DNA of 64,000 bases from an uncultured virus (IMG/VR IMGVR_UViG_3300003876_000001) (taxonomy: Duplodnaviria; Heunggongvirae; Uroviricota; Caudoviricetes), in the IMG/VR virus record IMGVR_UViG_3300003876_000001, positions 1 through 64,000 of that record, one strand, 5' to 3'. The notes under the pieces are model-generated. The model worked only from the letters and a program-made list of their open reading frames with translations, was not told where the DNA came from and did not search any database. Numbering within the stretch: position 1 is the first letter of the stretch; each line of letters starts with the position of its first letter. A program made the translations under genes and the position numbers. Below are positions 5,289-34,398 of this stretch, one piece after another.

Positions 5289-5957
5289 TTACAATTCAAA
5301 GTTTAATCCTGTTTTTTTGAGTTCATCGTACTTTTCTTTGTTGAACTCATATAGTTTTGCTGGTTTACCAACACCACCCACCGATTTGAAAGTTGTTTCT
5401 GTAAGTAATCCATAGCTTAATATTTTCTTATTAAAATTACGTCTATCTAATTCTTTACCTAATATTGCATTATATAATGCTAATAGTTCACTCATAGTAA
5501 AATATTTTGGTAATAATTCAAAACCAATAGGTTCGTATTGTAATTTATTTCTCAATCTCTCTAATGCATATTCAAAAATTCCCATATGGTCAAAGGCTAA
5601 TGGAATATATTTTATTCCATATGTTGGAAACCATTTAACTTCTTTTGCATGAATATTAGTAATTAAACTATGTTTATTGGGATTAATTAATCCATAATGT
5701 GCTATTGAGATTATTCTCTCTCTAGGATCACGATCAACATCAGTAAATGTACATAGTTGTTCTAAATAATCCAACTCAACATTGGTTTCTTCCTTTAATT
5801 GTCTAAGTACCCCATCCTCTGCTGTTTCATTATCTAAAAGAAATCCCCCTGCTAAAGCAAACATATCTAAGTATGGTTCAAATGCTCTTTTAATTAAAAG
5901 AACTTTTAATTCATCTTCATAATACGAGAATACGACTGCATCTACTGTAACTTTCAT
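5289..5957 (-). CDS. nrtR: NrtR-family NUDIX/wHTH regulator
   Basis: VTVDAVVF, degenerate NUDIX box, RDPRERIIS, LAFDH, FTMSEL, LDRRNF. Confidence 0.88.
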   Translation of the reverse strand: MKVTVDAVVFSYYEDELKVLLIKRAFEPYLDMFALAGGFLLDNETAEDGVLRQLKEETNVELDYLEQLCTFTDVDRDPRERIISIAHYGLINPNKHSLITNIHAKEVKWFPTYGIKYIPLAFDHMGIFEYALERLRNKLQYEPIGFELLPKYFTMSELLALYNAILGKELDRRNFNKKILSYGLLTETTFKSVGGVGKPAKLYEFNKEKYDELKKTGLNFEL

Positions 5958-6224
5958 TTTTCTTTATTAAATTCTTTAATAAAATTTATAATTTCATCAA
6001 CACTTTTTTTAGTATCAACTTTATCTTCTAAATATCGAATATCACTAATATAGTCTTGAATTAATAAATCATCTTTGAAATAAAATTCACAAAAAATTAT
6101 AAACCCTTCTCTTAATGTTTCAAGACTATTTTCATCTCTTGTTTTTTCTAAATTATCCATATGTAACTATGTATACGCAAATATATATAATTTTGTTACA
6201 ATATGTTAGGATTTTTTAAAAAAA

Positions 6225-7266: not shown

Positions 7267-10200
7267 TTATCCACATTTACTATTACCACATGATACACAT
7301 GTAAGGCAACCTTCTTTATATTCTAAATTATCTGACCCACAATTTGGACATGTACCATTTCCCTTTTCACCATCATTGATGTATTTTTTTATTACTCTAG
7401 CTACACCATTCTTCCAAGTATTTAAATGTTCATCATTTAAGTTAAGTGATTGTATTAAATCTAATACATAGATTATTGGCATACCATGACGTAATACTGA
7501 ACTAATCATTTTAGCATAGTTCCAATATTCTTCATTGAATGTATGATTTAATCCTGTATGTACAGCTTTTTCACCATTAGAATCAACATATTCAATATCA
7601 TATCTTTTAATACCATTTTCATCTCTTACTTTAACAACTTCACATTCAATAAGACTTGTAGGTAATTCAGATAAACCATTTTGCATACGACCAGTAAAAA
7701 CTTCATATGGTCTTCCATCCATCATACCAACAACACCAATCCATTTTTCAAGATTATTTTGAAATCTTATAATTTCAGCTTTTAATCTTTTAGGTCTTTT
7801 AGGTGCATGATTATCTTTAAATAACTTATCTTTTTCTTTCTTTTTCTTTTCTGTTTCAGTAACTAAAACACCAGAACGTGAACCATCACGATAAACAGTA
7901 ATTCCTTTACATCCATGTTTCCAACCAGCTTCATATACATTAGCAACTGTTTCTTCAGTTACATCATTAGGGAGATTTACAGTAACTGATATTGAATGAT
8001 CAATATGTTTTTGAACCATTCCTTGCATTTCTACTTTTTTAACCCAATCAACATCATTAGATGTTGCACCGTAATATGGTGAAAGTTTAACTAATTCGTT
8101 AATTTGATCTGAAGTATAGTGTTCAATAATATCTTCAACATCGTAACCATTAACTTCTAACCAAGTAACAAAATTATGATGAAATACTGGATATTCCATC
8201 CAAGTATCACCTAATTCATCGGTAAAATCAACTCTAACGTTTTTATCATTTGGATTTATTTTTCTTCTTCTAGTATAATAAACTAAGAACACAGGTTCAA
8301 TACCTGATGTAGTTTGAGTCATAATAGATACTGTACCCGTAGGTGCTATTGTAAGTAGTGCTAGATTACGTCTACCATACATTACCATCATATCATATAG
8401 ATCAGAGTCTTCGTCTTTTATACGTTGAATAAATGGATTATTTAATTCTCTTTCAGTATCATACATTGGGAAAGCACCTCTATCTCTTGCCATATATACT
8501 GATGAACGATATGCTTCAAGTTTTAATTGTTTATGTACTTCTTCTGAAAATTTATTAGCTTCGTCAGTACCATATGTTAAACCTAATGCAGCTAACATAT
8601 CACCTTCTGCTGTAATACCTAATCCTGTTCTACGACCTCTTTCTGCTTTATCTTTAATACTAACCCAAAGATTTCTTTCGGTTTCTCTAATGTGTAAATC
8701 TTCTGGATCGGAATCTATTTTAGCTAATATTTTATCTATTTTTTCTAATTCAAGATCAATAATATCATCCATTAATTTTTCAGCAATTCTAACATCTATT
8801 TTAAAAGATTCCCAATCAAAAAAAGCATTATCAGTAAATGGATTTACAACGTAACCAAATAAATTAATAGCTAATAATCTACAACTATCATTTGCACATA
8901 AAGGAATTTCACCACAATTATGTGTACTAATCCCATTTGCATCAAATTCATTTTTATCGGGGATTTGACAATCATAAACATTCTCAACACCAACATATTC
9001 AATAGATTTAATAGTATCAACAAATCTTTCTCTATATAACCCCCTATCTAAATTATTTAAAGCATTTTTTAATTTATTTTTTTTACTATTTTCAATAAAA
9101 TTTATTTCCTCTTGGAAGATTAATAGATTATCCTTAGATATTGATAACTCATGTTGTGACTTTGTTTTATACATTTTATACCCACCATTACCATCGGGCA
9201 TTTTTTTATATTGTTCTTCTCTTCTATTTTCATAAACGGTTGAGATAATACCAATTTTAGATAACATTCTTTGTGCCACATATAAATTTTCCAAAATTGA
9301 TGATGCTAGTCTAACGTTAACACCCTTTTCAATATTATTATTTACAGTTCCATCAGCATCAAACCACCCACATAAGAATCCCTTATAAAACTTACTACTT
9401 GCTTTTTCTATTTTATTGTTAATTCTTTTATCATTTAAAACACCATATTCGTATGATAATTTTTTTAAATTAACACTTTTAACTTGTTCGATTTCTAAAT
9501 CATCTTTAGAGTTACCCAAATCCAATCTATATTTTAAATTATTTTTTATACATTCAATAGCATAATTTTTAGTTTCTTTTCTATCTTCACCCCAATATCT
9601 TAAAATTGCGGATTCATTATCGAATGTTCCATCACCTAATAAACTTCCAATTAACCAACCTTCTTCAAAATTTCCTTCTCCATTCCAATTCATCCCAATA
9701 TTGTTGTTAAGATTAATAGTATCACCAATTTGAAAGTTTTTTAATTCAGTCCATTTATATTTCTTATCATTTCTATTTATTTCAAGTACTTGTTTAAATT
9801 CATGATTATCTGTTGACTTTATTTTAAATCCTTTTTTTGTAGTTATTTGAAAAACATCTCTATTTTCACCTGTTATAAAAAAACCTTTATCTGTCGATGA
9901 ATAAAAACCACCATCGACCATTGCGATGAATTTAACACCAATCAATTCTTCAACAGTTTTATTACCTTTATCTGTCATTATGTTCGAATCTAAAGTAAGA
10001 CAAGGGTTTGTTGATATTGTTTTAAAACCTAAATCACTATAACAATCAGGAACAGATTCATTAATTAAAGTATCCCAATATAAAATACCCGGTTCTGCCT
10101 TATCCCATGCATTATGGATAATTTTTTTCCATATTTTAGATGCATTAACTTCTTTAGTAAATGTTGGATTATTAGAATTTATTGGATATTGTTGTGTATA

Positions 10201-10929
10201 GGTTGTGCCTTGTGTAGCAGCTTCCATAAAATCATCATCAATTTTAACCGATACATTTGCACCTGTTACTTTAGTACCATCTAATTTGGCATCAATAAAT
10301 GCTTCAGCATCTGGGTGTTTAATTGAAATAGATTCCATTAAAGCACCACGTCTACCATCTTGTGCAACTTCTCTTGTTGTATTTGAGAACCTTTCCATAA
10401 ATGGAACGATACCTGTTGATGTTAATGCAGAATTTTTTACAGGTGAACCTTCAGGTCTTATAAAAGATAAATCTACACCAACACCTGCTCTTCTTTTTTG
10501 TAGTTGTGCAATTTCCTGATCTAATTTAAAAATACCACCATATGAATCTGCTTCATTTTCATTACCAATTACAAAACAATTTGAGATGGATACAATTTGA
10601 AAATCATTTCCAATGCCTGACATTGGTGAACCTTGTGGAACTATTTTCTTAAAATGTTTGATTTTTTCGTATATTTCTTCAGCGAATAAAGGGTTTGTAT
10701 ATTTCTTTTCTATTCTTGCTAATTCTTTTGCTAATCTCCAATGCATATCATCAGGAGTTTTTTCGTAAAGATTACCATCTGAATCTTTTAAACAGTATTT
10801 GTTTATCCAAACTTCTGTTGCTAAATTATCGCCATTAAAATAGGCTAATGTGGCTTCGTGAATTTCATCTCTTGTATATTTAGAATATACTTTACCCTCT
10901 TTAGGTTGTTCTTCTAAAGTTTCTTCCAT
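7267..10929 (-). CDS. nrdJ: Class II (AdoCbl-dependent) ribonucleotide reductase with intein
   Basis: SNCFV, TNP|CGE, TIAPTGT, KGITVYRDGSR, C-terminal Zn ribbon. Confidence 0.93.
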   Translation of the reverse strand: MEETLEEQPKEGKVYSKYTRDEIHEATLAYFNGDNLATEVWINKYCLKDSDGNLYEKTPDDMHWRLAKELARIEKKYTNPLFAEEIYEKIKHFKKIVPQGSPMSGIGNDFQIVSISNCFVIGNENEADSYGGIFKLDQEIAQLQKRRAGVGVDLSFIRPEGSPVKNSALTSTGIVPFMERFSNTTREVAQDGRRGALMESISIKHPDAEAFIDAKLDGTKVTGANVSVKIDDDFMEAATQGTTYTQQYPINSNNPTFTKEVNASKIWKKIIHNAWDKAEPGILYWDTLINESVPDCYSDLGFKTISTNPCLTLDSNIMTDKGNKTVEELIGVKFIAMVDGGFYSSTDKGFFITGENRDVFQITTKKGFKIKSTDNHEFKQVLEINRNDKKYKWTELKNFQIGDTINLNNNIGMNWNGEGNFEEGWLIGSLLGDGTFDNESAILRYWGEDRKETKNYAIECIKNNLKYRLDLGNSKDDLEIEQVKSVNLKKLSYEYGVLNDKRINNKIEKASSKFYKGFLCGWFDADGTVNNNIEKGVNVRLASSILENLYVAQRMLSKIGIISTVYENRREEQYKKMPDGNGGYKMYKTKSQHELSISKDNLLIFQEEINFIENSKKNKLKNALNNLDRGLYRERFVDTIKSIEYVGVENVYDCQIPDKNEFDANGISTHNCGEIPLCANDSCRLLAINLFGYVVNPFTDNAFFDWESFKIDVRIAEKLMDDIIDLELEKIDKILAKIDSDPEDLHIRETERNLWVSIKDKAERGRRTGLGITAEGDMLAALGLTYGTDEANKFSEEVHKQLKLEAYRSSVYMARDRGAFPMYDTERELNNPFIQRIKDEDSDLYDMMVMYGRRNLALLTIAPTGTVSIMTQTTSGIEPVFLVYYTRRRKINPNDKNVRVDFTDELGDTWMEYPVFHHNFVTWLEVNGYDVEDIIEHYTSDQINELVKLSPYYGATSNDVDWVKKVEMQGMVQKHIDHSISVTVNLPNDVTEETVANVYEAGWKHGCKGITVYRDGSRSGVLVTETEKKKKEKDKLFKDNHAPKRPKRLKAEIIRFQNNLEKWIGVVGMMDGRPYEVFTGRMQNGLSELPTSLIECEVVKVRDENGIKRYDIEYVDSNGEKAVHTGLNHTFNEEYWNYAKMISSVLRHGMPIIYVLDLIQSLNLNDEHLNTWKNGVARVIKKYINDGEKGNGTCPNCGSDNLEYKEGCLTCVSCGNSKCG
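8917..10002 (-). mobile_element. Intein (362 aa) with LAGLIDADG endonuclease in nrdJ
   Basis: Starts CLTLDS after TNP and ends THN before CGE; internal LIGSLLGDG and FLCGWFDADG. Confidence 0.92.
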
Positions 10930-13095: not shown

Positions 13096-13144
13096 ATTAT
13101 CAGCTTTTAAATATAAATACTATTTAAAAACCAAAAGTAACTAG

Positions 13145-13217
13145 TACCACCAGAGGGACTTGAACCCTCAACTCTTCCGTTAAAAGCGGAATACTCTACC
13201 AATTGAGTTATGATGGC
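13145..13217 (-). tRNA. tRNA-Lys(TTT)
   Basis: Cloverleaf; TTCCG-CTTTTAA-CGGAA. Confidence 0.92.
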
Positions 13218-13268
13218 ATATTTTATCTTTATATTGTAACAATTAAAACAATTTAAAGATAATTATTG

Positions 13269-13351
13269 TACATCGGGTGGGATTCGAACCCACGTTGTTG
13301 CGAACAACCCTGATTAAAAGTCAGGTGCATAAGCCTCTCTGCCACCGATGT
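13269..13351 (-). tRNA. tRNA-Lys(TTT) with long variable arm
   Basis: CCTGA-CTTTTAA-TCAGG; V arm GTTGT-TCGCA-ACAAC; perfect acceptor and T stems. Confidence 0.85.
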
Positions 13352-13513
13352 ATTTAGTAATTTTTAGAGATAAGTACCGAAAAACAATACTTTACTCAAA
13401 TTATTACTATATCGCATATCGCAATACACGATATTTGATTATAATATATTAATAATCAACAAATTAAAAATTTTTATTTTGATTTGCGATACACTACACA
13501 ATGTGTAGTGTTG

Positions 13514-13586
13514 TGCATCCGAAGGGAGTCGAACCCTTATCTCGATAATTAAGAGTTACCTACTTTACCAGTTAAGTTACGGATGC
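13514..13586 (-). tRNA. tRNA-Lys(CTT)
   Basis: GGTAA-CTCTTAA-TTATC; acceptor GCATCCG/CGGATGC. Confidence 0.9.
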
Positions 13587-13783
13587 ATAGGAGAACCTCT
13601 ACACACCCGAAAGGGGAAATGTAGAAGGTCTACTGTTTATGTTTAAATTTAGTTCTCATTATATTAATTCTTTATCTTCGAACAAATCTCTTTGTCCATT
13701 AAATTCATTTAAAAGTGTTTGTTCACCTAATCTTGCTCTTACTTTATCAATCCATTCATTTGTTTTTACTTTGGACATCCAAA

Positions 13784-14131
13784 CTAATTCAGCAGCTTTT
13801 CATTTAATTTAATTACAAAAACATTTTTCTTTGAAGTTCTCACCATTAGAAACTTCCTTAATTCTTCAGTTAAACTATTGGTAATATTTGATGTTGCTAA
13901 ATTTTCTATACCGAAAATCTGTAACTGCAATTGCCAAATATCTCTATCCATTAAGCTAAACATTAAATCTCCAATATCCATAAAGAAATCCTTATGAATG
14001 AAATCTATGTCAATCTCTATGTCACCTTCAATAGTTTCTCCATTAACTCTGATTTGCTTTTGGGCAATCCTAGTTTTGAAGTCTTTTGAAAAGACACCAC
14101 TTCCATGCAATATTTCACTTAACCTTACCAT
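13784..14131 (-). CDS. S4-like RNA-binding protein resembling the TyrRS C-terminal domain
   Basis: LSEILHGSGV..IAQKQIRVNGETI and C-terminal FLMVRTSKKNVFVI. Confidence 0.5.
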   Translation of the reverse strand: MVRLSEILHGSGVFSKDFKTRIAQKQIRVNGETIEGDIEIDIDFIHKDFFMDIGDLMFSLMDRDIWQLQLQIFGIENLATSNITNSLTEELRKFLMVRTSKKNVFVIKLNEKLLN

Positions 14132-14315
14132 TATTTTATCATTTTAAATTATCCATAATAATAAATTTTCCAATTATCAGGTAAATATTCTGATAATGGA
14201 ATTATATTATTTTTATCAATAAGTCCTTCATGTACCATTCTATGACAATTTTAATATTGTTTTTTGAACTATATTACTTTTTAATATAGTCTAATTCAAT
14301 TAACAATGTTAATTG

Positions 14316-14396
14316 TTGTACGGAAGGGAATCGAACCCCCATAGCCGAAGCAGCACATTTACAGTGTGCGGAACTCACCACCTGTTCAACCGTACA
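14316..14396 (-). tRNA. tRNA-Tyr(GTA)
   Basis: GCACA-CTGTAAA-TGTGC, long V arm, acceptor TGTACGG/CCGTACA. Confidence 0.92.
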
Positions 14397-14405
14397 ATAT
14401 GGCAT

Positions 14406-14439
14406 AAAAAAACCCTGACTCATTTCTGAATCAGGGTTT
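14406..14439 (-). terminator. Attenuator terminator ahead of tRNA-Tyr/Lys operon
   Basis: AAACCCTGATTCA-gaaa-TGAGTCAGGGTTT plus T-tract. Confidence 0.85.
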
Positions 14440-14461
14440 CTATATTTTAAACTTTATGGCT

Positions 14462-14545
14462 TTAGCCACCAAAGTTAGTACATAGAATACCTGATCCAGT
14501 ATCTGGATAGTTTTTATATTTCTTATATGTATTAACTTTTGTCAT
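14462..14545 (-). CDS. Putative attenuation leader peptide MTKVNTYKKYKNYPDTGSGILCTNFGG
   Basis: 27-aa ORF with TAT AAG AAA TAT AAA AAC TAT run, followed by antiterminator, terminator and tRNA-Tyr/Lys. Confidence 0.75.
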   Translation of the reverse strand: MTKVNTYKKYKNYPDTGSGILCTNFGG

Positions 14546-14644
14546 GATTTCTAATTTATTTTGGTGGTATTACACTACCACCAGTTATGTCTTTTTTACT
14601 TATTATAATATCTTTTTTCATTAATTGTTTACAAAAATCGTTTA

Positions 14645-15081: not shown

Positions 15082-16179
15082 CTAATTTTCATACCCATCT
15101 CTAAATGGTGTTGACCAGTCTGGTTTAATCATTTTCCAAATTGCTTCAGAATAATTTTTATTATTATACATAGAAAATAATAATCCAGAATGTTTAAATT
15201 CTTTTGCTATTAAAGCAAATTCTTTCTTTCTTTCAAAAGGATCAAATCCATTTTTCAAACTAACTAAATTAGTTACCCTAACGAATTCACGTAATGTTTC
15301 AACTTCAATTTCAATATACATATCATTTAAACCCTTTTCAGTACGTCTAACCCAATTGTAGAATTCATCAGGAACTCTATCAATAACTTCATCCAATCCT
15401 TCACCATTTTTCAATGATTCCCAAATTGTCTTATTAGATACGTTAGTAACGATTCTATGTAATCTGCAATATTCATCGAATTTTACTTTTACACGGAAGC
15501 CATTAGAATAACGTACAACAAATCCTTCTTTGTTATCTTCTTCTAATTCCTTTAATTTAGAAATATCAGATGTTACATCATACTTTTCAACAATAGTAAA
15601 TTCATCAGAGTGATTATACACCATATCATCATATGACATTTCATCACCACCATCAGTATTGATAACACCTAAAAGAACCAAATCTTCAGTCTTACCATAA
15701 TCAATAACAATACGATTTTCAGGATATATAATTTCAAATACATATGTATTATCACCATTTAAAAATCTATAAGAATTTTCAATATTAAGCATGATTTCAC
15801 CACCTTTAATGGCTTGTTCTGATTCAAATGAACCTCTTGAAGCAAATATCCAATCACCTTCATAATTAAATAAAATACCCAATGAACCATCCATTTTTTC
15901 AAATGCTTCAAATGATAAATCAGTTGGAATATCAGAAGGATCGTGTTCTTCTAAATTGAAGAATTTTTTCATGCTTCGACCAACAATATTACCATCGATG
16001 TCAACAAAAAGTCCACGACAAGATAATGTAATTAAATCCCATTCCTTTTCAAATGCACATGTTTTAGAATAATTTAGAACCCATATATCTTTAGTTGGGT
16101 GTTTATTAGTAATTAATAAACCCTTTTCAATATATTCATTAATAACACTCCATTCTATTTTAGTAAGTATTTTTTCCAT
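15082..16179 (-). CDS. rnlA: T4 RNA ligase 1-like (RnlA)
   Basis: CRGL, KKFFN, EKMDGSLG, SRGSF, FEII, EGFVV, KVKFDEY. Confidence 0.9.
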   Translation of the reverse strand: MEKILTKIEWSVINEYIEKGLLITNKHPTKDIWVLNYSKTCAFEKEWDLITLSCRGLFVDIDGNIVGRSMKKFFNLEEHDPSDIPTDLSFEAFEKMDGSLGILFNYEGDWIFASRGSFESEQAIKGGEIMLNIENSYRFLNGDNTYVFEIIYPENRIVIDYGKTEDLVLLGVINTDGGDEMSYDDMVYNHSDEFTIVEKYDVTSDISKLKELEEDNKEGFVVRYSNGFRVKVKFDEYCRLHRIVTNVSNKTIWESLKNGEGLDEVIDRVPDEFYNWVRRTEKGLNDMYIEIEVETLREFVRVTNLVSLKNGFDPFERKKEFALIAKEFKHSGLLFSMYNNKNYSEAIWKMIKPDWSTPFRDGYEN

Positions 16180-27342: not shown

Positions 27343-27352
27343 ATGACCAGTG

Positions 27353-27424
27353 CGGAACATAGGGGAATCGAACCCCTACCCTATGAGTGATAGTCATATA
27401 TCCTAGCCGTTAGACCAATGCTCC
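27353..27424 (-). tRNA. tRNA-Asp with ATC anticodon
   Basis: TATGA-CTATCAC-TCATA; GGAGCAT/ATGTTCC, G73. Confidence 0.8.
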
Positions 27425-27931
27425 GTTTATATTTCAAATATACGTAAACTTTTTTAAAAGGTTACATATTAATGTAAATAAATTTCAAAATCTTTAAAAA
27501 TTTTAACAACTTCTTTACGTTTTAGTTTTTTATCTTTTCTACTATAAAAATGATAATATTTATTATTTAATAATTTAACAAATCCCATTTTATTAAGAAT
27601 GCCACCATATACTTCAGTACATTTATCTGTTGCATCTGTATGTGCACTAAAACAAACATAATCAAAAGATTTAAGTTCATCATTGTAAATATTACTAATT
27701 TTTCTAATTAATTTAATCAGTTTTACTTACATATGTACTTCTTTTACTATTAGAAGATTTGGTTGTAATTAATATACTAGGCATTGAAATTTTAATATTA
27801 CCATATTGAAATATTAAATGGCTTATTTGATATTCAATATCTTCATATTTAAATCTACATATTTCTTTATCAACCATATATTTATAATACGTAAACTTTT
27901 TTAAAAGGTTACAATTTATTTAAAAATTTTG

Positions 27932-28003
27932 TACCGATGGAGTGAATCGAACACTCGTATACATTCTTATGAGAAATGTGCCTTACCACTTGGCGACATC
28001 GGC
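27932..28003 (-). tRNA. tRNA-CAT (elongator Met or Ile2)
   Basis: CATTT-CTCATAA-GAATG. Confidence 0.85.
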
Positions 28004-28380
28004 ATTTATAAATTCTTTGAATTGTTCTTCAACAAACTTTTTATTATATGAACCCATATCTTTTATTATGTACGGTTCATATCCATAATTTTTAATTTCA
28101 ATTAATTTCAATCTATCCCTATTTTGTACTTGTTTTACTGAATGATTTTTGATTATTTTTTCATAATGCCATTTACCATTCCATAAAATTGCTATTTTAA
28201 TATCGTGAATAATAACATCAGCATCCCATCCATTAAAAATTTTTTCATTAGTTTCAACATTTTTAAAATATTCTATACATAAATCCGCAAAATAGATTTC
28301 ATTTTTACTTCGTCTAACTTTATTTGATTTTTTTACTTTATTTGCTCTATATTTACCAACACAAGAACGACTACAAAATT
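27983..28380 (-). CDS. PD-(D/E)XK/DUF559-like endonuclease (N-terminus uncertain)
   Basis: FCSRSC, RSKNE, ADVII..IAILWNGKWH; the computed start lies inside tRNA-Asp. Confidence 0.55.
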
Positions 28381-28383
28381 TTG

Positions 28384-28454
28384 CCGTCCATGAGGGAATC
28401 AAACCCTCGGCAATCGGGAGACAACCGATCATGTTATCATTACACCAATGGACG
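28384..28454 (-). tRNA. tRNA-Asp(GTC)
   Basis: ATCGG-TTGTCTC-CCGAT; G73. Confidence 0.82.
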
Positions 28455-28488
28455 TTATGTTATAACTAGTTGATTTTCAACTACTTTG

Positions 28489-28561
28489 CTCGCCCTGAAA
28501 GATTTGAACTTTCATCTTCAGTTTTGGAGACTGCTATGTTACCGTTGATCACCAAGAGCGA
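28489..28561 (-). tRNA. tRNA-Trp(CCA)
   Basis: GCAGT-CTCCAAA-ACTGA; G73. Confidence 0.88.
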
Positions 28562-28634
28562 ATATAAAACAACGTTGATATCTGGTTCAACGTTGAAAAC
28601 CTTTTTTAAATCCAGACCATAAGGTAAAGACCAG

Positions 28635-28707
28635 TTGGGTGTGTGGGACTCGAACCCACGATATTCTGCATGTAAAACAGATGCCTTTGCCACTAGACGA
28701 ACACCCA
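28635..28707 (-). tRNA. tRNA-Val(TAC)
   Basis: TCTGT-TTTACAT-GCAGA; A73. Confidence 0.88.
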
Positions 28708-28718
28708 ATAAATTATGA

Positions 28719-28841
28719 ACCACTAGGTAGGACTCGAACCTACAAGGGATGTCCCACATGTTACCATGCAGCAGGGGTTTTCTATAACCCCTACAAACCA
28801 CCTTCAACGGTGATAGTGTATACCTGTTCCACCACTAACAA
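28719..28841 (-). tRNA. Atypical 123-nt tRNA with multi-hairpin variable region
   Basis: Leu-like D arm, ATCAC/GTGGT stem with 8-nt loop, three V hairpins, GTAGGTTCGAGTCCTAC. Confidence 0.55.
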
Positions 28842-28848
28842 TTCATAG

Positions 28849-28924
28849 TAATCGGTAAAGGATTTAAACCTCTATCTGGTGGCTTTTGACCCCACCTATC
28901 CTAGTTCCATTAGACGAACCGATC
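28849..28924 (-). tRNA. tRNA-Glu paralog with 9-nt anticodon loop
   Basis: GGTGG-GGTCAAAAG-CCACC; body similar to 29694-29765. Confidence 0.6.
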
Positions 28925-28997
28925 ATAAACAACGTTGATTAACGGGTTCAACGTTGAAAACCTTTGTAGAATCCAAACCAAAGGTAAGGATCAAAAT

Positions 28998-29642
28998 TTA
29001 TATTATACGACCTTTAATCCAATCGTTTTTTATATAGTCATTTAAATCAAATAATTTAATTTTTTTATTAACATCATTTTTTGTTATCCAACATGTTCCA
29101 TATTGGGAGTTACTTTTCCCTTTTCCCATTCCCTTGCTAGATTCACTCATTTTTCTTTTACTTTCTTCATTATGATATTTATTTTTAAAATTATTATATT
29201 TAAGTTTTCCTTCTTTATGTGTTTTTTTTATTCTTTCCGAAGAAAGTTTTATTTGCATTTTTCTATATGAAGGGTCTTTCCATTTTTCTTTTAAAAATTT
29301 AGATGCACCATTACGAATATTTTCTCTTTTGTCTTCAGATAATCCTATTAATCCACCACCACCACCAACAACTAAATTCATACAATCTTTTTTGGCAATT
29401 TCATTTAAATTAATAATCTCCTTTTCTTTATTTTTTAAATCAATTCTATTTTCAAAGAACTCTAATACTTCAACACTATGATTTTCTTTACCATATTTAT
29501 TAATCGAATATCTTAATCTTTTACCTGAACCATAATAACCATCATTTAAATCATCAGTACTATGCATACCATAATAGTATTTACCGTTTAAATTATTTGT
29601 TGTCTTATACAAATAATGATATTTCTTTTGTTTTCTTGCCAT
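28998..29642 (-). CDS. GIY-YIG homing endonuclease (Seg-like, NUMOD3)
   Basis: YLYKTTN..KYYYG.H, YYGSG, HNEESKRKMS. Confidence 0.85.
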   Translation of the reverse strand: MARKQKKYHYLYKTTNNLNGKYYYGMHSTDDLNDGYYGSGKRLRYSINKYGKENHSVEVLEFFENRIDLKNKEKEIINLNEIAKKDCMNLVVGGGGGLIGLSEDKRENIRNGASKFLKEKWKDPSYRKMQIKLSSERIKKTHKEGKLKYNNFKNKYHNEESKRKMSESSKGMGKGKSNSQYGTCWITKNDVNKKIKLFDLNDYIKNDWIKGRII

Positions 29643-29693
29643 ATTTACAATGTTTAATTATAAATATTACAAAGGTACAAAAACGACCAAAAG

Positions 29694-29765
29694 TACTCGG
29701 TAGGGGAATCGAACCCCTATCTGATGGCTGAAAACCACCCGTCCTAACCGTTAGACGAACCGAGC
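29694..29765 (-). tRNA. tRNA-Glu(TTC)
   Basis: GGTGG-TTTTCAG-CCATC. Confidence 0.9.
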
Positions 29766-29770
29766 AAATA

Positions 29771-29942
29771 AATGTTGAGTTTATAGTTCTTTCACATATT
29801 GGTGTAATCTAACAGTACGAGTACGGTTTCAATATATGATGTTGGAAAAGCCAGACCATGTTAGAGTCGTCATATTACACATAAAGCCGATACTAATCTT
29901 ATGCTGTCGATAGTCTATAAACAACCGCTTCCTTTCAACATT
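29771..29942 (-). ncRNA. ~172-nt rod-like RNA with internal bubbles (6S-like candidate)
   Basis: AATGTTGA/TCAACATT, GTTTATAG/CTATAAAC, GTGTAAT/ATTACAC, TCTAACA/TGTTAGA. Confidence 0.55.
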
Positions 29943-29944
29943 AG

Positions 29945-30016
29945 TGGAGAGTAAGGGAGTCGAACCCTTATCCATTGAGTGCAAGTCAATAATAATAGCC
30001 ATTATACTAACTCCCC
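29945..30016 (-). tRNA. tRNA-Ala(TGC)
   Basis: ATTGA-CTTGCAC-TCAAT; G3.U70. Confidence 0.9.
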
Positions 30017-30151
30017 ATATATTTGCTTATCACGGACAATACACACGACATGTATTTGTTCGAAGCCACCATTATAGTGCTGCCGTCAAGAGTCTCTGCT
30101 CTCTCTTCACAAATAATTTTTTAATAAACAATACGTCAAATAACTTTATTG

Positions 30152-30221
30152 TGGATACTGTCGGAATCGAACCGAAACGTTTGGTATGCAAAACCAACGA
30201 CCTGCCTTTAGCATCAGACCC
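30152..30221 (-). tRNA. tRNA-Ala(TGC), irregular acceptor/D arm
   Basis: TTGGT-TTTGCAT-ACCAA; G3.U70. Confidence 0.7.
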
Positions 30222-30223
30222 AT

Positions 30224-30367
30224 TTACTTTTTAATCACTTCAAAATACTTATCAATCTTTTTATCGACTTCTTCTTTTGTTTTACCTTGGCTGCAAATTG
30301 CTGGTACATCTTTTATGTACGCAAATACTACACCCTTTTCTTTATCTTCAATATAAACTCTTATCAT
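30224..30367 (-). CDS. 47-aa HicB-like (antitoxin N-terminal domain) protein, absent from ORF track
   Basis: MIRVYIEDKEKGVVFAYIKDVPAICSQGKTKEEV. Confidence 0.6.
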   Translation of the reverse strand: MIRVYIEDKEKGVVFAYIKDVPAICSQGKTKEEVDKKIDKYFEVIKK

Positions 30368-30389
30368 AATTTCTAAACCCTTATAAAAC

Positions 30390-30416
30390 AAAAAACCCAA
30401 TCTGTTAGGATTGGGT
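30390..30416 (-). terminator. Attenuator terminator ahead of tRNA-Ala/Glu/Val/Asp operon
   Basis: ACCCAATC-ctaaca-GATTGGGT plus T-tract. Confidence 0.85.
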
Positions 30417-30444
30417 CTTCAATTTCGTTTGGATGTTTTAGTAG

Positions 30445-30532
30445 TTAAACTAATTCACCTTCTCCTGAAGACCCTAGACACAAATCGTCCACCTCAACTG
30501 CTTCCGCAACTAATTGTTCTTGAATTCTTCAT
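30445..30532 (-). CDS. Putative leader peptide ...IQEQLVAEAVEVDDLCLGSSGEGELV (1 nt out of frame with the ATG)
   Basis: Nine consecutive GNN codons at 30510..30484; antiterminator GGGTCTTCA at 30474..30466. Confidence 0.6.
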
Positions 30533-30619
30533 CTTTTTAATTATTTTAAAGTTATTATACTTTGTTCTATATTAAATACGTTGCAAATATAAAAAAGGTT
30601 TAGTTAAGATGCAAGTTTT

Positions 30620-31444: not shown

Positions 31445-31735
31445 TTAGTGTTCTAACGCTATTTGTCGTATAACTTCTTTACCATCACCCGTTAGTTCAT
31501 AGAATATACTAAATGCTTCTTCATCTTCCTCTAATAGATCAAGTTCAACTAATTCATCACAAACTTTCCATGAAAGTAAATTACCATCAATATCTTCATC
31601 GTGATTAGGATCACGATTTTCAAATTCAGCACACCCATCATTTGCATTAATTAAAAATAATGTTTCAAGATGTTCTTGAGTTAAATCATATGTAAAATAT
31701 AATTTATTACTTAGATATTTAATTGTTTTCTTCAT
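31445..31735 (-). CDS. Hypothetical protein (possible winged helix)
   Basis: ELVELDLL..YELTGDGKE. Confidence 0.45.
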   Translation of the reverse strand: MKKTIKYLSNKLYFTYDLTQEHLETLFLINANDGCAEFENRDPNHDEDIDGNLLSWKVCDELVELDLLEEDEEAFSIFYELTGDGKEVIRQIALEH

Positions 31736-32144
31736 GTTTTCTATAATTTAATAAATAATTATCAATATTTTCTCTACCTGCTGGATTCATTGAATGTCCA
31801 AACCAATCAGGTAATTTTAAATTATTATCCATACAGAATTCTACTAACCACTTAGCACAATCCATACCTGTTTTTTCTTTAAATCCTTGATTTTCTGCCC
31901 ATGAATCATATTTATCATCCCAATGTTCTTTTGGTGCATAATGTTCATCGGCAAGGTCGTGATCAAAACCAATTATAGTTGGCATTACATCATGTTTTTC
32001 ATAATTACGTGTAATATAATCTACGAATTGATTATAATCACGTACAATTTTCCAATGATCATCTCTATATGATGTAAAACTAGTATATTCATACGCATCA
32101 ATTGGATTGCGTATGTCGTCTAAAAATAACCTATATCCTTTCAT
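31719..32144 (-). CDS. Cyclic-phosphate processing receiver-domain protein
   Basis: LFLDDIR, FDHDL, TGMDCAKW, HSMNPAG. Confidence 0.75.
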   Translation of the reverse strand: MKGYRLFLDDIRNPIDAYEYTSFTSYRDDHWKIVRDYNQFVDYITRNYEKHDVMPTIIGFDHDLADEHYAPKEHWDDKYDSWAENQGFKEKTGMDCAKWLVEFCMDNNLKLPDWFGHSMNPAGRENIDNYLLNYRKHEENN

Positions 32145-33788: not shown

Positions 33789-33872
33789 ATGAAAAGATTA
33801 GTTAACATAGTAGGTCAACCCCAACCGCAGCATCAACATCAGATGTTGAACGGGGAGAATATGTCTAGTTAA
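33789..33872 (+). CDS. Putative attenuation leader peptide MKRLVNIVGQPQPQHQHQMLNGENMSS
   Basis: 27-aa ORF with CAA CCC CAA CCG CAG CAT CAA CAT CAG run, followed by antiterminator, terminator and tRNA-Pro/Gln/His. Confidence 0.8.
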   Translation: MKRLVNIVGQPQPQHQHQMLNGENMSS

Positions 33873-33897: not shown

Positions 33898-33932
33898 AAC
33901 CCTGTTCACATCAAAATGAACAGGGTTTTTTT
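33898..33932 (+). terminator. Attenuator terminator ahead of tRNA-Pro/His/Gln operon
   Basis: AACCCTGTTCA-catcaaaa-TGAACAGGGTT plus T-tract. Confidence 0.87.
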
Positions 33933-33977: not shown

Positions 33978-34053
33978 CTAGGTGCGATCCATGAGGTGTG
34001 GTTGCTCGACTTGGAATCGAGATTATTTACAGGTTCAACTCCTGTCACTTAGA
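33978..34053 (+). tRNA. tRNA-Pro(TGG)
   Basis: CTCGA-CTTGGAA-TCGAG; C1-G72, A73. Confidence 0.82.
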
Positions 34054-34079
34054 CTTATTGTTCTTTGATTTATTAATAT

Positions 34080-34155
34080 CGGGTAATGGACTAATCAGGT
34101 AAGTCGCTTCGTTTGGGACGAAGACATCATGGGGGTTCGATTCCCTCTTACCCGA
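34080..34155 (+). tRNA. tRNA-Pro(TGG)
   Basis: CTTCG-TTTGGGA-CGAAG; CGGGTAA/TTACCCG. Confidence 0.9.
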
Positions 34156-34169
34156 CTTATAACTTTTCA

Positions 34170-34236
34170 TATATGAAAGGTAGCATTGTCGGGTCGTGAC
34201 CCCGAAGGTATGGATTCGATTTCCATTAAACACCCA
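34170..34236 (+). pseudogene. tRNA-His(GTG)-like, 5' acceptor strand missing
   Basis: TCGGG-TCGTGAC-CCCGA; ATGGA-TTCGATT-TCCAT. Confidence 0.55.
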
Positions 34237-34239
34237 TAT

Positions 34240-34312
34240 TGACTTATTGTATAACGGTTTATTACGCCAAATTTTGAATTTGGAGATTCTGGTTCGATTC
34301 CAGATAGGTCAG
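34240..34312 (+). tRNA. tRNA-Gln(TTG)
   Basis: CCAAA-TTTTGAA-TTTGG; T1-A72, G73. Confidence 0.9.
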
Positions 34313-34317
34313 CAAAT

Positions 34318-34390
34318 GGTGTTCGTAGTATAACGGTAAACACGCTTGATTGTGATTCAAGTAATGCCTGTTCGATTCTGGTCGAACACC
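34318..34390 (+). tRNA. tRNA-His(GTG)
   Basis: CTTGA-TTGTGAT-TCAAG; G-1/C73. Confidence 0.9.
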
Positions 34391-34398
34391 CAAAATAT

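Follow-up and report, generated by a model that had tools for sequence, protein, structure and literature searches.

T-box riboswitches, known mainly from Firmicutes, sense uncharged tRNA directly and control aminoacyl-tRNA synthetase and amino-acid genes, and in the pheST (pheM) leader of E. coli, a Phe-rich leader peptide mediates attenuation ahead of the phenylalanyl-tRNA synthetase genes. To our knowledge, the control of the tRNA genes of phages has been little studied. The logic of leader-peptide transcription attenuation is laid out in PMC1183508, and the purpose of phage tRNA genes is under debate, with compensation for codon usage and escape from tRNA-targeting defences as the two views contrasted in PMC10264068. 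Here we describe a short leader open reading frame (ORF) that lies, on the minus strand, upstream of a block of tRNA genes in a 64,000-nucleotide (nt) stretch of DNA from an uncultured virus, namely, positions 1 to 64,000 of the IMG/VR record IMGVR_UViG_3300003876_000001 (G000); this stretch is hereinafter called the window. The arrangement of this element and of three similar units in the same genome suggests, with a probability that we put at about 70%, that it is one of four ribosome-mediated leader-peptide transcription attenuators that would gate the phage tRNA clusters by decoding speed.

The four units share one layout. Each is located directly upstream of a tRNA cluster and consists of a leader ORF followed by an intrinsic terminator, with a segment near the end of the ORF (region 2) that can pair either upstream, with the 5' part of the ORF itself (region 1), or downstream, with the 5' arm of the terminator (region 3), so that the alternative pairings can be denoted 1:2 and 2:3, and the terminator hairpin 3:4. 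The 2:3 complement is 9 nt long in all four units, perfect in units 1 and 2 and with G.U pairs included in units 3 and 4; such a complement was reached by 11, 8, 38 and 28 of 2000 shuffles for units 1 to 4, respectively, with G.U pairs allowed for units 3 and 4 (for unit 1, the upstream 131 nt were dinucleotide-shuffled and scored for a complement of at least 9 nt to the arm region). The terminators are hairpins of -13.6 to -20.4 kcal/mol followed by six or seven T, and in every leader the stop codon falls between regions 2 and 3. In the minimum free energy (MFE) folds of all four leaders, region 2 is held in an upstream pairing with parts of the ORF, and the terminator is formed. A strict scan for a terminator with its complement retrieved unit 1 only, among 48 terminators; units 2-4 require G.U pairs or a bulged stem.

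Unit 1 is the element described above, and units 3 and 4 also lie in the window. Unit 2 is present only in G001, past the end of G000; G001 is a 325,854-nt IMG/VR contig with a completeness estimate of 100%, reached by a search with the gene upstream of unit 1, and is a 100% identical relative of G000. Searching G001 with the DNA of leader 1 located, at 144261-144333, a second version of the promoter region with 75% identity, behind which lies a 41-amino-acid (aa) ORF, MKNNNTYISRISNLLTSSICGNGTFNGRRAKIGSNVDIVIS, rich in N, S, I, T, G, R, L and F. Within this ORF, the 9-nt segment AGATCGGGT is perfectly complementary to the 5' arm of the terminator behind it, and a cluster of 21 tRNAs comes next. 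Units 3 and 4 were found by listing the small ORFs upstream of every tRNA with a gap before it, in addition to reading the window. In the fold of unit 3, the Pro, Gln and His sensing codons themselves constitute region 1; the peptide run QPQPQHQHQ is encoded at 25 IMG/VR loci, which served as a control, and tRNAs lie downstream at the locus of this phage only. In G001, the cluster behind unit 3 comprises Pro, Pro, His, Gln and His, the extra His being lost in the window by a drop-out at 34178/34179. The proposal that a leader peptide precedes the tRNA genes, made in a preliminary description of unit 1 alone, is supported, and the attenuator reading draws its strongest support from these three further units, with peptides that match their own clusters.

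This match was quantified under conservative wobble rules (G reads C/U, U reads A/G, C reads G and A reads U/C), each leader being assigned the tRNAs that lie between its terminator and either the following unit or the point at which the cluster ends. The cluster of leader 2 can read 31 of the 40 leader codons, a value attained by 162 of 200,000 random windows drawn from long ORFs (p ~0.0008); the corresponding values are 8/26 for leader 3 (321/200,000, p ~0.0016), 17/38 for leader 1 (7,428/200,000, p ~0.04) and 7/26 for leader 4 (19,055/200,000, p ~0.10). Most of the cross-matches are low, for instance, 2/40 for leader 2 against cluster 1, 0/38 for leader 1 against cluster 3 and 1/26 for leader 4 against cluster 1. 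Viewed from the side of the tRNAs, the four leaders together contain a cognate codon for 30 of the 31 distinct anticodons of their own clusters, that is, 9/9 for leader 1, 15/16 for leader 2 and 3/3 for each of leaders 3 and 4, coverage that was reached by 1,026, 3, 6,408 and 18,805 of 100,000 random windows, respectively. Leader 2 includes one codon for each tRNA-Arg species, three in all (CGA, AGA, CGT), and uses CTA and CTC (for Leu-TAG and Leu-GAG) as well as ATA (for Ile-TAT), although AGA and TTA dominate the phage genes. In leader 1, cluster amino acids account for 23 of the 39 residues of the whole peptide (p ~0.002) and for 17 of the 19 residues of the core MEAMLWSVAEAVEVDDLCL, a level that none of 35,726 19-aa windows of long ORFs reaches, the core window having been picked post hoc.

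The preliminary description of unit 1 rested on nine consecutive codons that start with G (GTT GCG GAA GCA GTT GAG GTG GAC GAT, 30510-30484) and on GGGTCTTCA (30474-30466), a perfect 9-nt complement of TGAAGACCC, which overlaps the 5' side of the terminator. Both are present in the window. Runs of at least nine such codons occur seven times in the 139-kb record, all the others inside long ORFs, and a run of this kind marks coding-like sequence and nothing unique. As read in the window, the ATG at 30532 gives MKNSRTISCGSS*, one base out of frame with the run, and an indel error, an ATT start or a frameshift had been offered as ways out of this discrepancy. The indel proved to be the right choice. 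Between 30512 and 30511, the window lacks 32 nt that are carried by G001, by L103, a metagenome relative with 88% DNA identity over 437 nt of unit 1 (one change within the 32 nt), and by Logan record 9 of run X4, a contig that crosses the site without a gap; P0007, a 39-aa database protein that is 82% identical to leader 1 and whose ORF was predicted by a gene caller, carries the corresponding residues. With the 32 bases restored, the ATG at 30532 is in frame and opens the 39-aa ORF MKNSRTILNTNMEAMLWSVAEAVEVDDLCLGSSGEGELV (P0001, G001), its counterparts being 38 aa long in L103 and 39 aa in P0007, and the comparison of the orthologous leaders that had been advised shows this frame open in all three. 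The run previously taken as the sensing part is indeed there, and the sensing stretch turns out to be longer, with MEAMLWS, encoded within the dropped bases, preceding VAEAVEVDD.

Over 139,141 aligned nt, G000 and G001 differ by 3 mismatches and by 13 junctions at which 32-64 nt are absent from G000; one of these, 34178/34179, truncates a tRNA-His. Because there are 13 such drop-outs at otherwise 100% identity, including the one in tRNA-His, we conclude that the frame offset in the window is most probably an assembly drop-out, not biology. A biological offset (a genuine variant with a deletion, programmed frameshifting or a start codon other than ATG) might be argued for on the grounds that the record as deposited reads out of frame and that the shorter form, from which one inner hairpin is deleted, is predicted to favour the antiterminator, its 5' domain being weakened to -13.9 from -27.2 kcal/mol, so a constitutive variant is conceivable; we consider this scarcely credible, given that the set of drop-outs has the signature of an assembly fault and that the long form is found in G001, L103, the Logan contig and, as a protein, P0007. 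Frame or gene calls made on the window across any of the 13 junctions are suspect.

The full leader of unit 1 folds with an MFE of -51.0 kcal/mol in G001 and -48.1 kcal/mol in L103 (z-scores -3.57 and -3.59; 0 of 200 shuffles as good), the two not being independent tests given the near-identical sequence in this part. A helix of ~19 bp joins the start-codon region (UGAAGA-A-UUC-A-AGA-ACAA) to codons 27-33, which end in GGGUCUUCA; two inner hairpins lie between the strands of regions 1 and 2, and the terminator follows. The pairing with the terminator side that was described before does exist, and a second, upstream partner is available at the start codon: GGGUCUUCA can pair either with the start region (1:2) or with the 5' arm of the terminator (2:3), which is a trp-like layout. 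The respective energies are -27.2 kcal/mol for the 5' domain, -19.2 for the 2:3 hairpin and -15.0 for the terminator. Ahead of the leader lies a putative promoter, called on the strength of TAnnTTTG, which we take to be a -7 box; this motif is not enriched in the window (92 observed vs 100 expected), and the promoter together with the 5' untranslated region shows 8 changes in 83 nt relative to L103. A GGAG Shine-Dalgarno sequence is found upstream of 1 of the 112 long ORFs, and a leader devoid of one is thus normal for this phage. With 3 matches vs 1.4 expected, the motif GTTATTTGACGTATTG does not qualify as a repeated signal. The coordinates of the features are collected in the table.

Table. 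Features of the four units and their surroundings in the window (end1..end2 or as written, positions of the 64,000-nt stretch)
Feature	Position	Strand	Details
Promoter-like stretch, unit 1	30584..30614	-	TTG 30614-30612, TATATTTG 30591-30584
Leader ORF 1, interrupted in the window	30445..30532	-	ATG 30532-30530; in-frame TAA 30447-30445
Region 1 (anti-antiterminator 5' strand), start-codon region UGAAGAAUUCAAGAACAAUU	30512..30531	-	pairs with region 2; MFE fold
Surviving sensing run VAEAVEVDD	30484..30510	-	MEAMLWS before it lost in the dropped 32 nt
Region 2, GAU UUG UGU CUA GGG UCU UCA (G)	30465..30486	-	partner region 1, or region 3 via GGGUCUUCAG
Region 3, TGAAGACCC, antiterminator partner	30413..30421	-	overlaps terminator 5' arm
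Intrinsic terminator, unit 1	30390..30415	-	CCCAATC (30415-30409), loop CTAACA, GATTGGG (30402-30396), TTTTTT (30395-30390)
47-aa ORF, first gene after the terminator	30224..30367	-	five homologues, 85-91% identity
tRNA block behind unit 1	27931..30221	-	order: weak Ala-TGC-like, Ala-TGC, Glu-TTC, homing-endonuclease gene, Leu-CAA-like, Val-TAC, Trp-CCA, Asp-GTC, Met-CAT
Ala-TGC tRNA	30016-29944	-	downstream of unit 1
Leu-CAA-like odd tRNA	28848-28924	-	Glu-like body, anticodon arm now Leu-CAA
Leader ORF 3, MKRLVNIVGQPQPQHQHQMLNGENMSS (27 aa)	33789..33872	+	sensing run QPQPQHQHQ 33816-33842; region 2 UGAACGGGG 33847-33855
Terminator, unit 3, AACCCTGTTCA / TGAACAGGGTT + T-tract	33898..33932	+	5' arm : region 2 = 9 bp, one G.U; T-tract 33926-33932
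tRNA cluster 3: Pro-TGG, Pro-TGG, Gln-TTG, His-GTG	33978..34391	+	starts 46 nt after T-tract
Leader ORF 4, MTKVNTYKKYKNYPDTGSGILCTNFGG (27 aa)	14462..14545	-	YKKYKNY 14527-14507; region 1 AUCCAG 14508-14503; region 2 GGAUCAGG 14497-14490
Terminator, unit 4, GAAACCCTGATTCA / TGAGTCAGGGTTTT + T-tract	14406..14440	-	hairpin -20.4 kcal/mol; T-tract 14412-14406
tRNA cluster 4: Tyr-GTA, Lys-CTT, Lys-TTT, Lys-TTT	13144..14396	-	directly downstream of unit 4
Drop-out junctions of G000	17363/4, 27716/7, 30511/2, 34178/9, 41985/6, 50146, 54743/4, 54940/1, 58075-9, 58488/9		three more beyond 64000

The DNA of leader 1 evolves in a manner that sets it apart from its neighbour. Between G001 and L103, codons 1-33 of the leader differ at 2 of 99 nt, with one synonymous and one non-synonymous change, and the terminator region differs at 1 of 32 nt, with the hairpin and the T-tract identical; the loop of the 2:3 hairpin differs at 20 of 44 nt and contains 2 gaps. 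In the 47-aa ORF, the first gene after the terminator, 20 of 141 nt differ, with 12 synonymous and 6 non-synonymous codon changes in 47 codons. At the synonymous rate of that ORF, ~8 synonymous changes would be expected in the leader by our own arithmetic, against 1 seen, which implies that the leader DNA is constrained beyond its peptide. Logan contigs from four runs show, among the listed differences, none at positions 3502-3576 of L002, which comprise the ORF core and region 2, and many from 3577 on, a further 54 differences falling outside that listing; at least four variants occur in run X4 alone, and one Logan terminator variant is an A>G change that retains a G.U pair. The C-terminal tails of leader 1 vary freely (GEGELV, KDFGG, GIDELS), the stop codon remaining inside the loop. 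The GC content at third codon positions is 0.45 in the leader 1 core, compared to a gene mean of 0.127 and a gene maximum of 0.296, and the codons used in the core are rare within their families (GCG 0.02, GTG 0.05, GAG 0.08, GAC 0.08). All surviving codons of the sensing run are readable by the downstream tRNAs.

These features suggest a scheme in which translation, stalling and switching, as we infer them, would operate as follows. The promoter-like stretch would drive a short leader RNA with an ORF of 27-41 codons that is rich in, and samples nearly all of, the codons that the tRNAs of the cluster behind it decode. Region 2, near the end of the ORF, would pair upstream with region 1, in the 5' part of the ORF, or alternatively downstream with region 3, the 5' arm of the terminator. 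When no ribosome is present, 1:2 would form, followed by the terminator, and the tRNA genes would be off; they would likewise be off when a ribosome runs through and covers region 2, allowing the terminator to form. A ribosome that lags on the sensing codons, the cognate charged tRNAs being scarce, would leave region 2 to take the emerging region 3, so that the terminator would be pre-empted and the tRNA cluster transcribed. The net effect would be a negative feedback of each tRNA set on its own supply. The closing helix of unit 1 (~19 bp, -27.2 kcal/mol) is stable without a ligand, which fits a switch that takes a ribosome, and not a small molecule, to open it.

Several observations weigh against this scheme. 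The sensing run of unit 1 is not part of region 1 but separates it from region 2, so region 1 could re-pair behind a stalled ribosome; the stop codon lies 18 nt after region 2, and the footprint of a ribosome at the stop ends ~3 nt short of it. In equilibrium folds with the whole terminator present, the terminator is part of the MFE structure at most ribosome positions, and if the transcript is truncated ahead of the 3' arm, the 5' arm finds an upstream partner even in the absence of a ribosome. Such folding, in which the footprints of ribosomes were masked, neither reproduces a switch nor decides the matter, and the decision would have to be kinetic; in the trp attenuator, the terminator is likewise the most stable hairpin, and equilibrium folding likewise shows no switch. 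Region 3 in L103 is TAAAGACCC, which leaves one C.A mismatch in the 2:3 helix, and all the relatives of unit 1 are close (at least 88% DNA identity), so compensatory changes cannot be scored. As for the codon match, the whole-ORF enrichment is modest for leaders 1 (p ~0.04) and 4 (p ~0.10), both of which also match cluster 2 fairly well (16/38 and 15/26, the cluster 2 set making up 46% of the background codons), and the cluster limits, the wobble rules and the 19-aa window were our own choices. Promoter-like sequences inside the clusters leave open the span of the transcripts that would be regulated. Finally, there is no clear analogue of the units in LR756508.1, which encodes 28 tRNAs and a capsid protein 31.7% identical to that of the phage analysed here, and no analogous unit in Flavobacterium phage immuto_3-5A.

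The same architecture would also suit translation-coupled attenuators that sense the general translation capacity (ribosome availability, host shut-off or the coupling of transcription to translation, early as against late in infection), with the codon match a by-product. The modest enrichments of leaders 1 and 4 are in keeping with this possibility, and so is the location of the start codon of unit 1 inside region 1, where the efficiency of initiation alone could set the outcome. We nevertheless regard it as unlikely because there are four leaders with four compositions, each matching its own cluster, and because the rare codons of leader 2 (CTA, CTC, CGA, CGT, ATA) and the QPQPQHQHQ run before the Pro, Gln and His tRNAs are hard to explain without codon-specific sensing.

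Another reading, which to us appears distinctly improbable, dispenses with the ribosome altogether and treats the units as RNA switches that bind tRNA in a T-box-like fashion, a protein or a small molecule, the reading frames being incidental. It could draw on the strong nucleotide conservation, with 1 synonymous change in 33 codons, on the high local GC content and significant folding and on the multi-stem layout, in which the 3' strand of the closing helix overlaps the antiterminator, as in OFF riboswitches. Yet a frame of 27-41 codons from ATG to stop is open in four unrelated leaders and stays open in L103 and P0007 despite the changes, the stop is always between regions 2 and 3, and the match to the clusters is in frame, at the codon level; moreover, unit 1 has a closing helix stable enough to do without a ligand, and the search for known RNA families, T-box included, was negative (see below). 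Should the ORFs be ordinary small protein genes followed by ordinary terminators, the complements and the match in composition would have to be coincidental. Acidic stretches of A, E, L, V, D and M are common helix formers, runs of at least nine G-initial codons are not exceptional in this genome, as their seven occurrences in 139 kb indicate, and gene callers do predict the ORF, P0007 being an example. We assign this explanation a very low probability: the codon usage is far from that of the phage genes, the C-terminal tails vary freely while the core DNA is frozen, no protein family was found, and all four units possess the 2:3 complement and precede matching tRNA clusters. Leader-peptide attenuation remains the reading that we prefer.

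The genome that carries the units is that of a T4-like giant phage. The record is 138,979 nt long, with a completeness estimate of 42%, and the window comprises its first 64 kb; the window has a GC content of 25-31%, encodes a T4-type major capsid protein, a portal protein and a terminase, and contains 22 tRNA genes, and the capsid proteins of the nearest phage-collection records are only ~30% identical. Among isolated phages, there was no DNA or protein match for leader 1, for the gene upstream of it or for unit 3, and a genome_contigs search gave 0 matches. None of the sequencing runs listed as containing the stretch is an RNA run. The GGGTCTTCA..TGAAGACCC hairpin pattern occurs at 13 loci in IMG/VR, the contig of G001 being the only related one, and the degenerate pattern MLWSVAEAVEVDD was found there in G001 only. 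In metagenomes, the VAEAVEVDD pattern occurs at 120 or more loci, with one true relative (L103) among the matches listed and nearly all of the others chance matches in high-GC sequence. The proteins P0008 and P0009 were rejected because they match through an LWSV..V.DLC motif within HYR-type repeats, which is a resemblance by chance. A homologue of leader 2, P0010, is short of 5 residues, region 2 among them, and could be a variant or a further assembly fault. In LR756508.1, at ~5940-6100 (L189), a small ORF with three Phe, MNTQRPQPKYRFYFEPVSFG, is located 163 nt before a tRNA-Phe, with a hairpin behind the ORF, and may represent a weak analogue in this huge and distant phage.

The 47-aa ORF behind the terminator of unit 1 is conserved, and searches of Pfam, PHROGs (best E 0.026), NCBIfam and the PDB assigned it to no family. 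A first impression of a HicB-like antitoxin was not borne out, there being no Pfam match at E<=0.1, no NCBIfam match at E<=1 and no related PDB entry (no E below 0.45). Of the tRNAs that had been listed downstream of unit 1, Ala, Glu, Val, Trp, Asp and the Met-CAT are all present, and the first putative Ala (30221-30153) falls below threshold: this Ala-TGC-like sequence scores 24.2 bits in Rfam against a cut-off of 29 and is detected by ARAGORN only at a relaxed setting. Cluster 1 extends beyond the tabulated block, to 20885, with Asp-ATC, two Leu-TAA, Leu-CAA, Glu and two Met. The Asp-ATC (27352-27424, minus strand; Rfam 59 bits) has an unusual anticodon, with A at position 34, and stands beside the normal Asp-GTC. 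At 28717-28842 (-) there is a sequence with a good T-arm and a weak acceptor stem, for which ARAGORN returns tRNA-Ser(TGA) only with a 29-nt intron permitted. A homing-endonuclease gene (28998-29642, minus strand; PHROG 314, 3e-34) and a second small ORF (27983-28432, minus strand) are lodged between the tRNA genes. A ~65-nt repeat (28560-28625 and 28925-28990, minus strand) of the form ..GGTTTTCAACGTTGAACC..ATCAACGTTG TTT.. produces a hairpin just 5' of tRNA-Trp and of the Leu-CAA-like tRNA and could be a processing or termination signal. The motif AAAGTTATTTGACGTATTG occurs after the first tRNA or tRNA-like sequence of units 1 and 2 (30129-30144 in the window, minus strand, and L139 1925-1942) and also at the contig ends of several Logan relatives; it resembles the ATTTGCAACGTATTTA of the leader promoters and might act as an internal promoter. 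The window also encodes a cyclic-phosphate-processing receiver domain protein (cREC_REC, 4.9e-18; 31719-32144, minus strand), ~1.1 kb upstream of the promoter-like stretch of unit 1.

Around the other units, G001 carries, at 157717-157787, a tRNA with the anticodon CTA, labelled Pyl by ARAGORN, which could be a phage amber suppressor. A second small ORF, MKKDIIISKKDITGGSVIPPK, with 5 Lys among its 21 residues, lies at 14556-14621 (-) of the window, where it separates leader ORF 4 from the promoter-like stretch; this small ORF, which has a GGTGGTA/TACCACC hairpin at its end, may belong to unit 4. A gene for an RNA ligase of the T4 Rnl1 type is located at 15082-16179 (-), immediately upstream of that Tyr/Lys unit (Pfam 1.1e-19; NCBIfam T4 RnlA 1.1e-22, below the cut-off); Rnl1 of T4 repairs tRNA-Lys cut by the anticodon nuclease. 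On the same strand, at 7267-10929, the large subunit of ribonucleotide reductase is interrupted by an intein with a LAGLIDADG endonuclease domain.

Leaders 1 and 2 both begin with MKN, and their promoters are 75% identical. On a broader and more tentative view, for which we would put the odds somewhat below even, the tRNA operons of the phage would be run by modular sensors of decoding capacity, each leader having evolved to sample every isoacceptor of its operon, with units 1 and 2 as diverged duplicates; the phage would replace exactly the tRNAs that are limiting, including those cut by host anticodon nucleases, and the units would amount to an inducible counter-defence beyond the compensation of codon usage. 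If the attenuation reading itself is correct, the phage measures the speed of decoding and tops up tRNAs on demand, and a textbook mechanism would be extended from the supply of amino acids to the supply of tRNAs. The units are small, self-contained and amenable to reporter tests and might be put to use as natural sensors that report how available particular tRNAs are.

None of the four units reached the threshold of any known RNA family, and the T-box model produced no match at E<=10 on any of them. Among the Rfam leader families, the best scores were 21.9 for Thr_leader (cut-off 55), 18.9 for Phe_leader (cut-off 55) and 15.1 for Trp_leader (cut-off 41), with no match for unit 1; His_leader and Leu_leader were also searched. 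A full-text literature search, with most subscription journals outside its coverage, found no account of leader-peptide attenuation of tRNA genes. The closest likeness is to the attenuators of amino-acid operons (trpL, hisL, leuL, pheL, thrL, ilvL), with which the phage units share a short leader ORF, regulatory codons, the mutually exclusive 1:2, 2:3 and 3:4 pairings and a terminator before the controlled genes, and, in the case of the multivalent thrL and ilvL, the sensing of several amino acids at once. Unlike those attenuators, which precede biosynthetic enzymes and repeat one or two codons, the phage units precede tRNA genes, and their leaders sample up to 15 of 16 isoacceptors; unit 1 differs further in that its start codon is part of region 1 and its sensing run is placed between that region and region 2. 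With the T-box, the units have in common a choice between terminator and antiterminator that would report the status of tRNA, as well as targets within the translation apparatus, whereas the T-box needs no ribosome and pairs a single specifier codon with the anticodon, and the phage leaders contain a multi-codon frame from ATG to stop. The pheST (pheM) leader is alike in being a leader-peptide attenuator placed over a component of tRNA supply and not of amino-acid synthesis; that leader responds to a single amino acid and controls a synthetase, whereas the phage units would gate the tRNA genes themselves and sense whole sets. Relative to the known attenuators, the units differ in the tRNA-gene target, the phage carrier and leaders that cover whole sets of isoacceptors.

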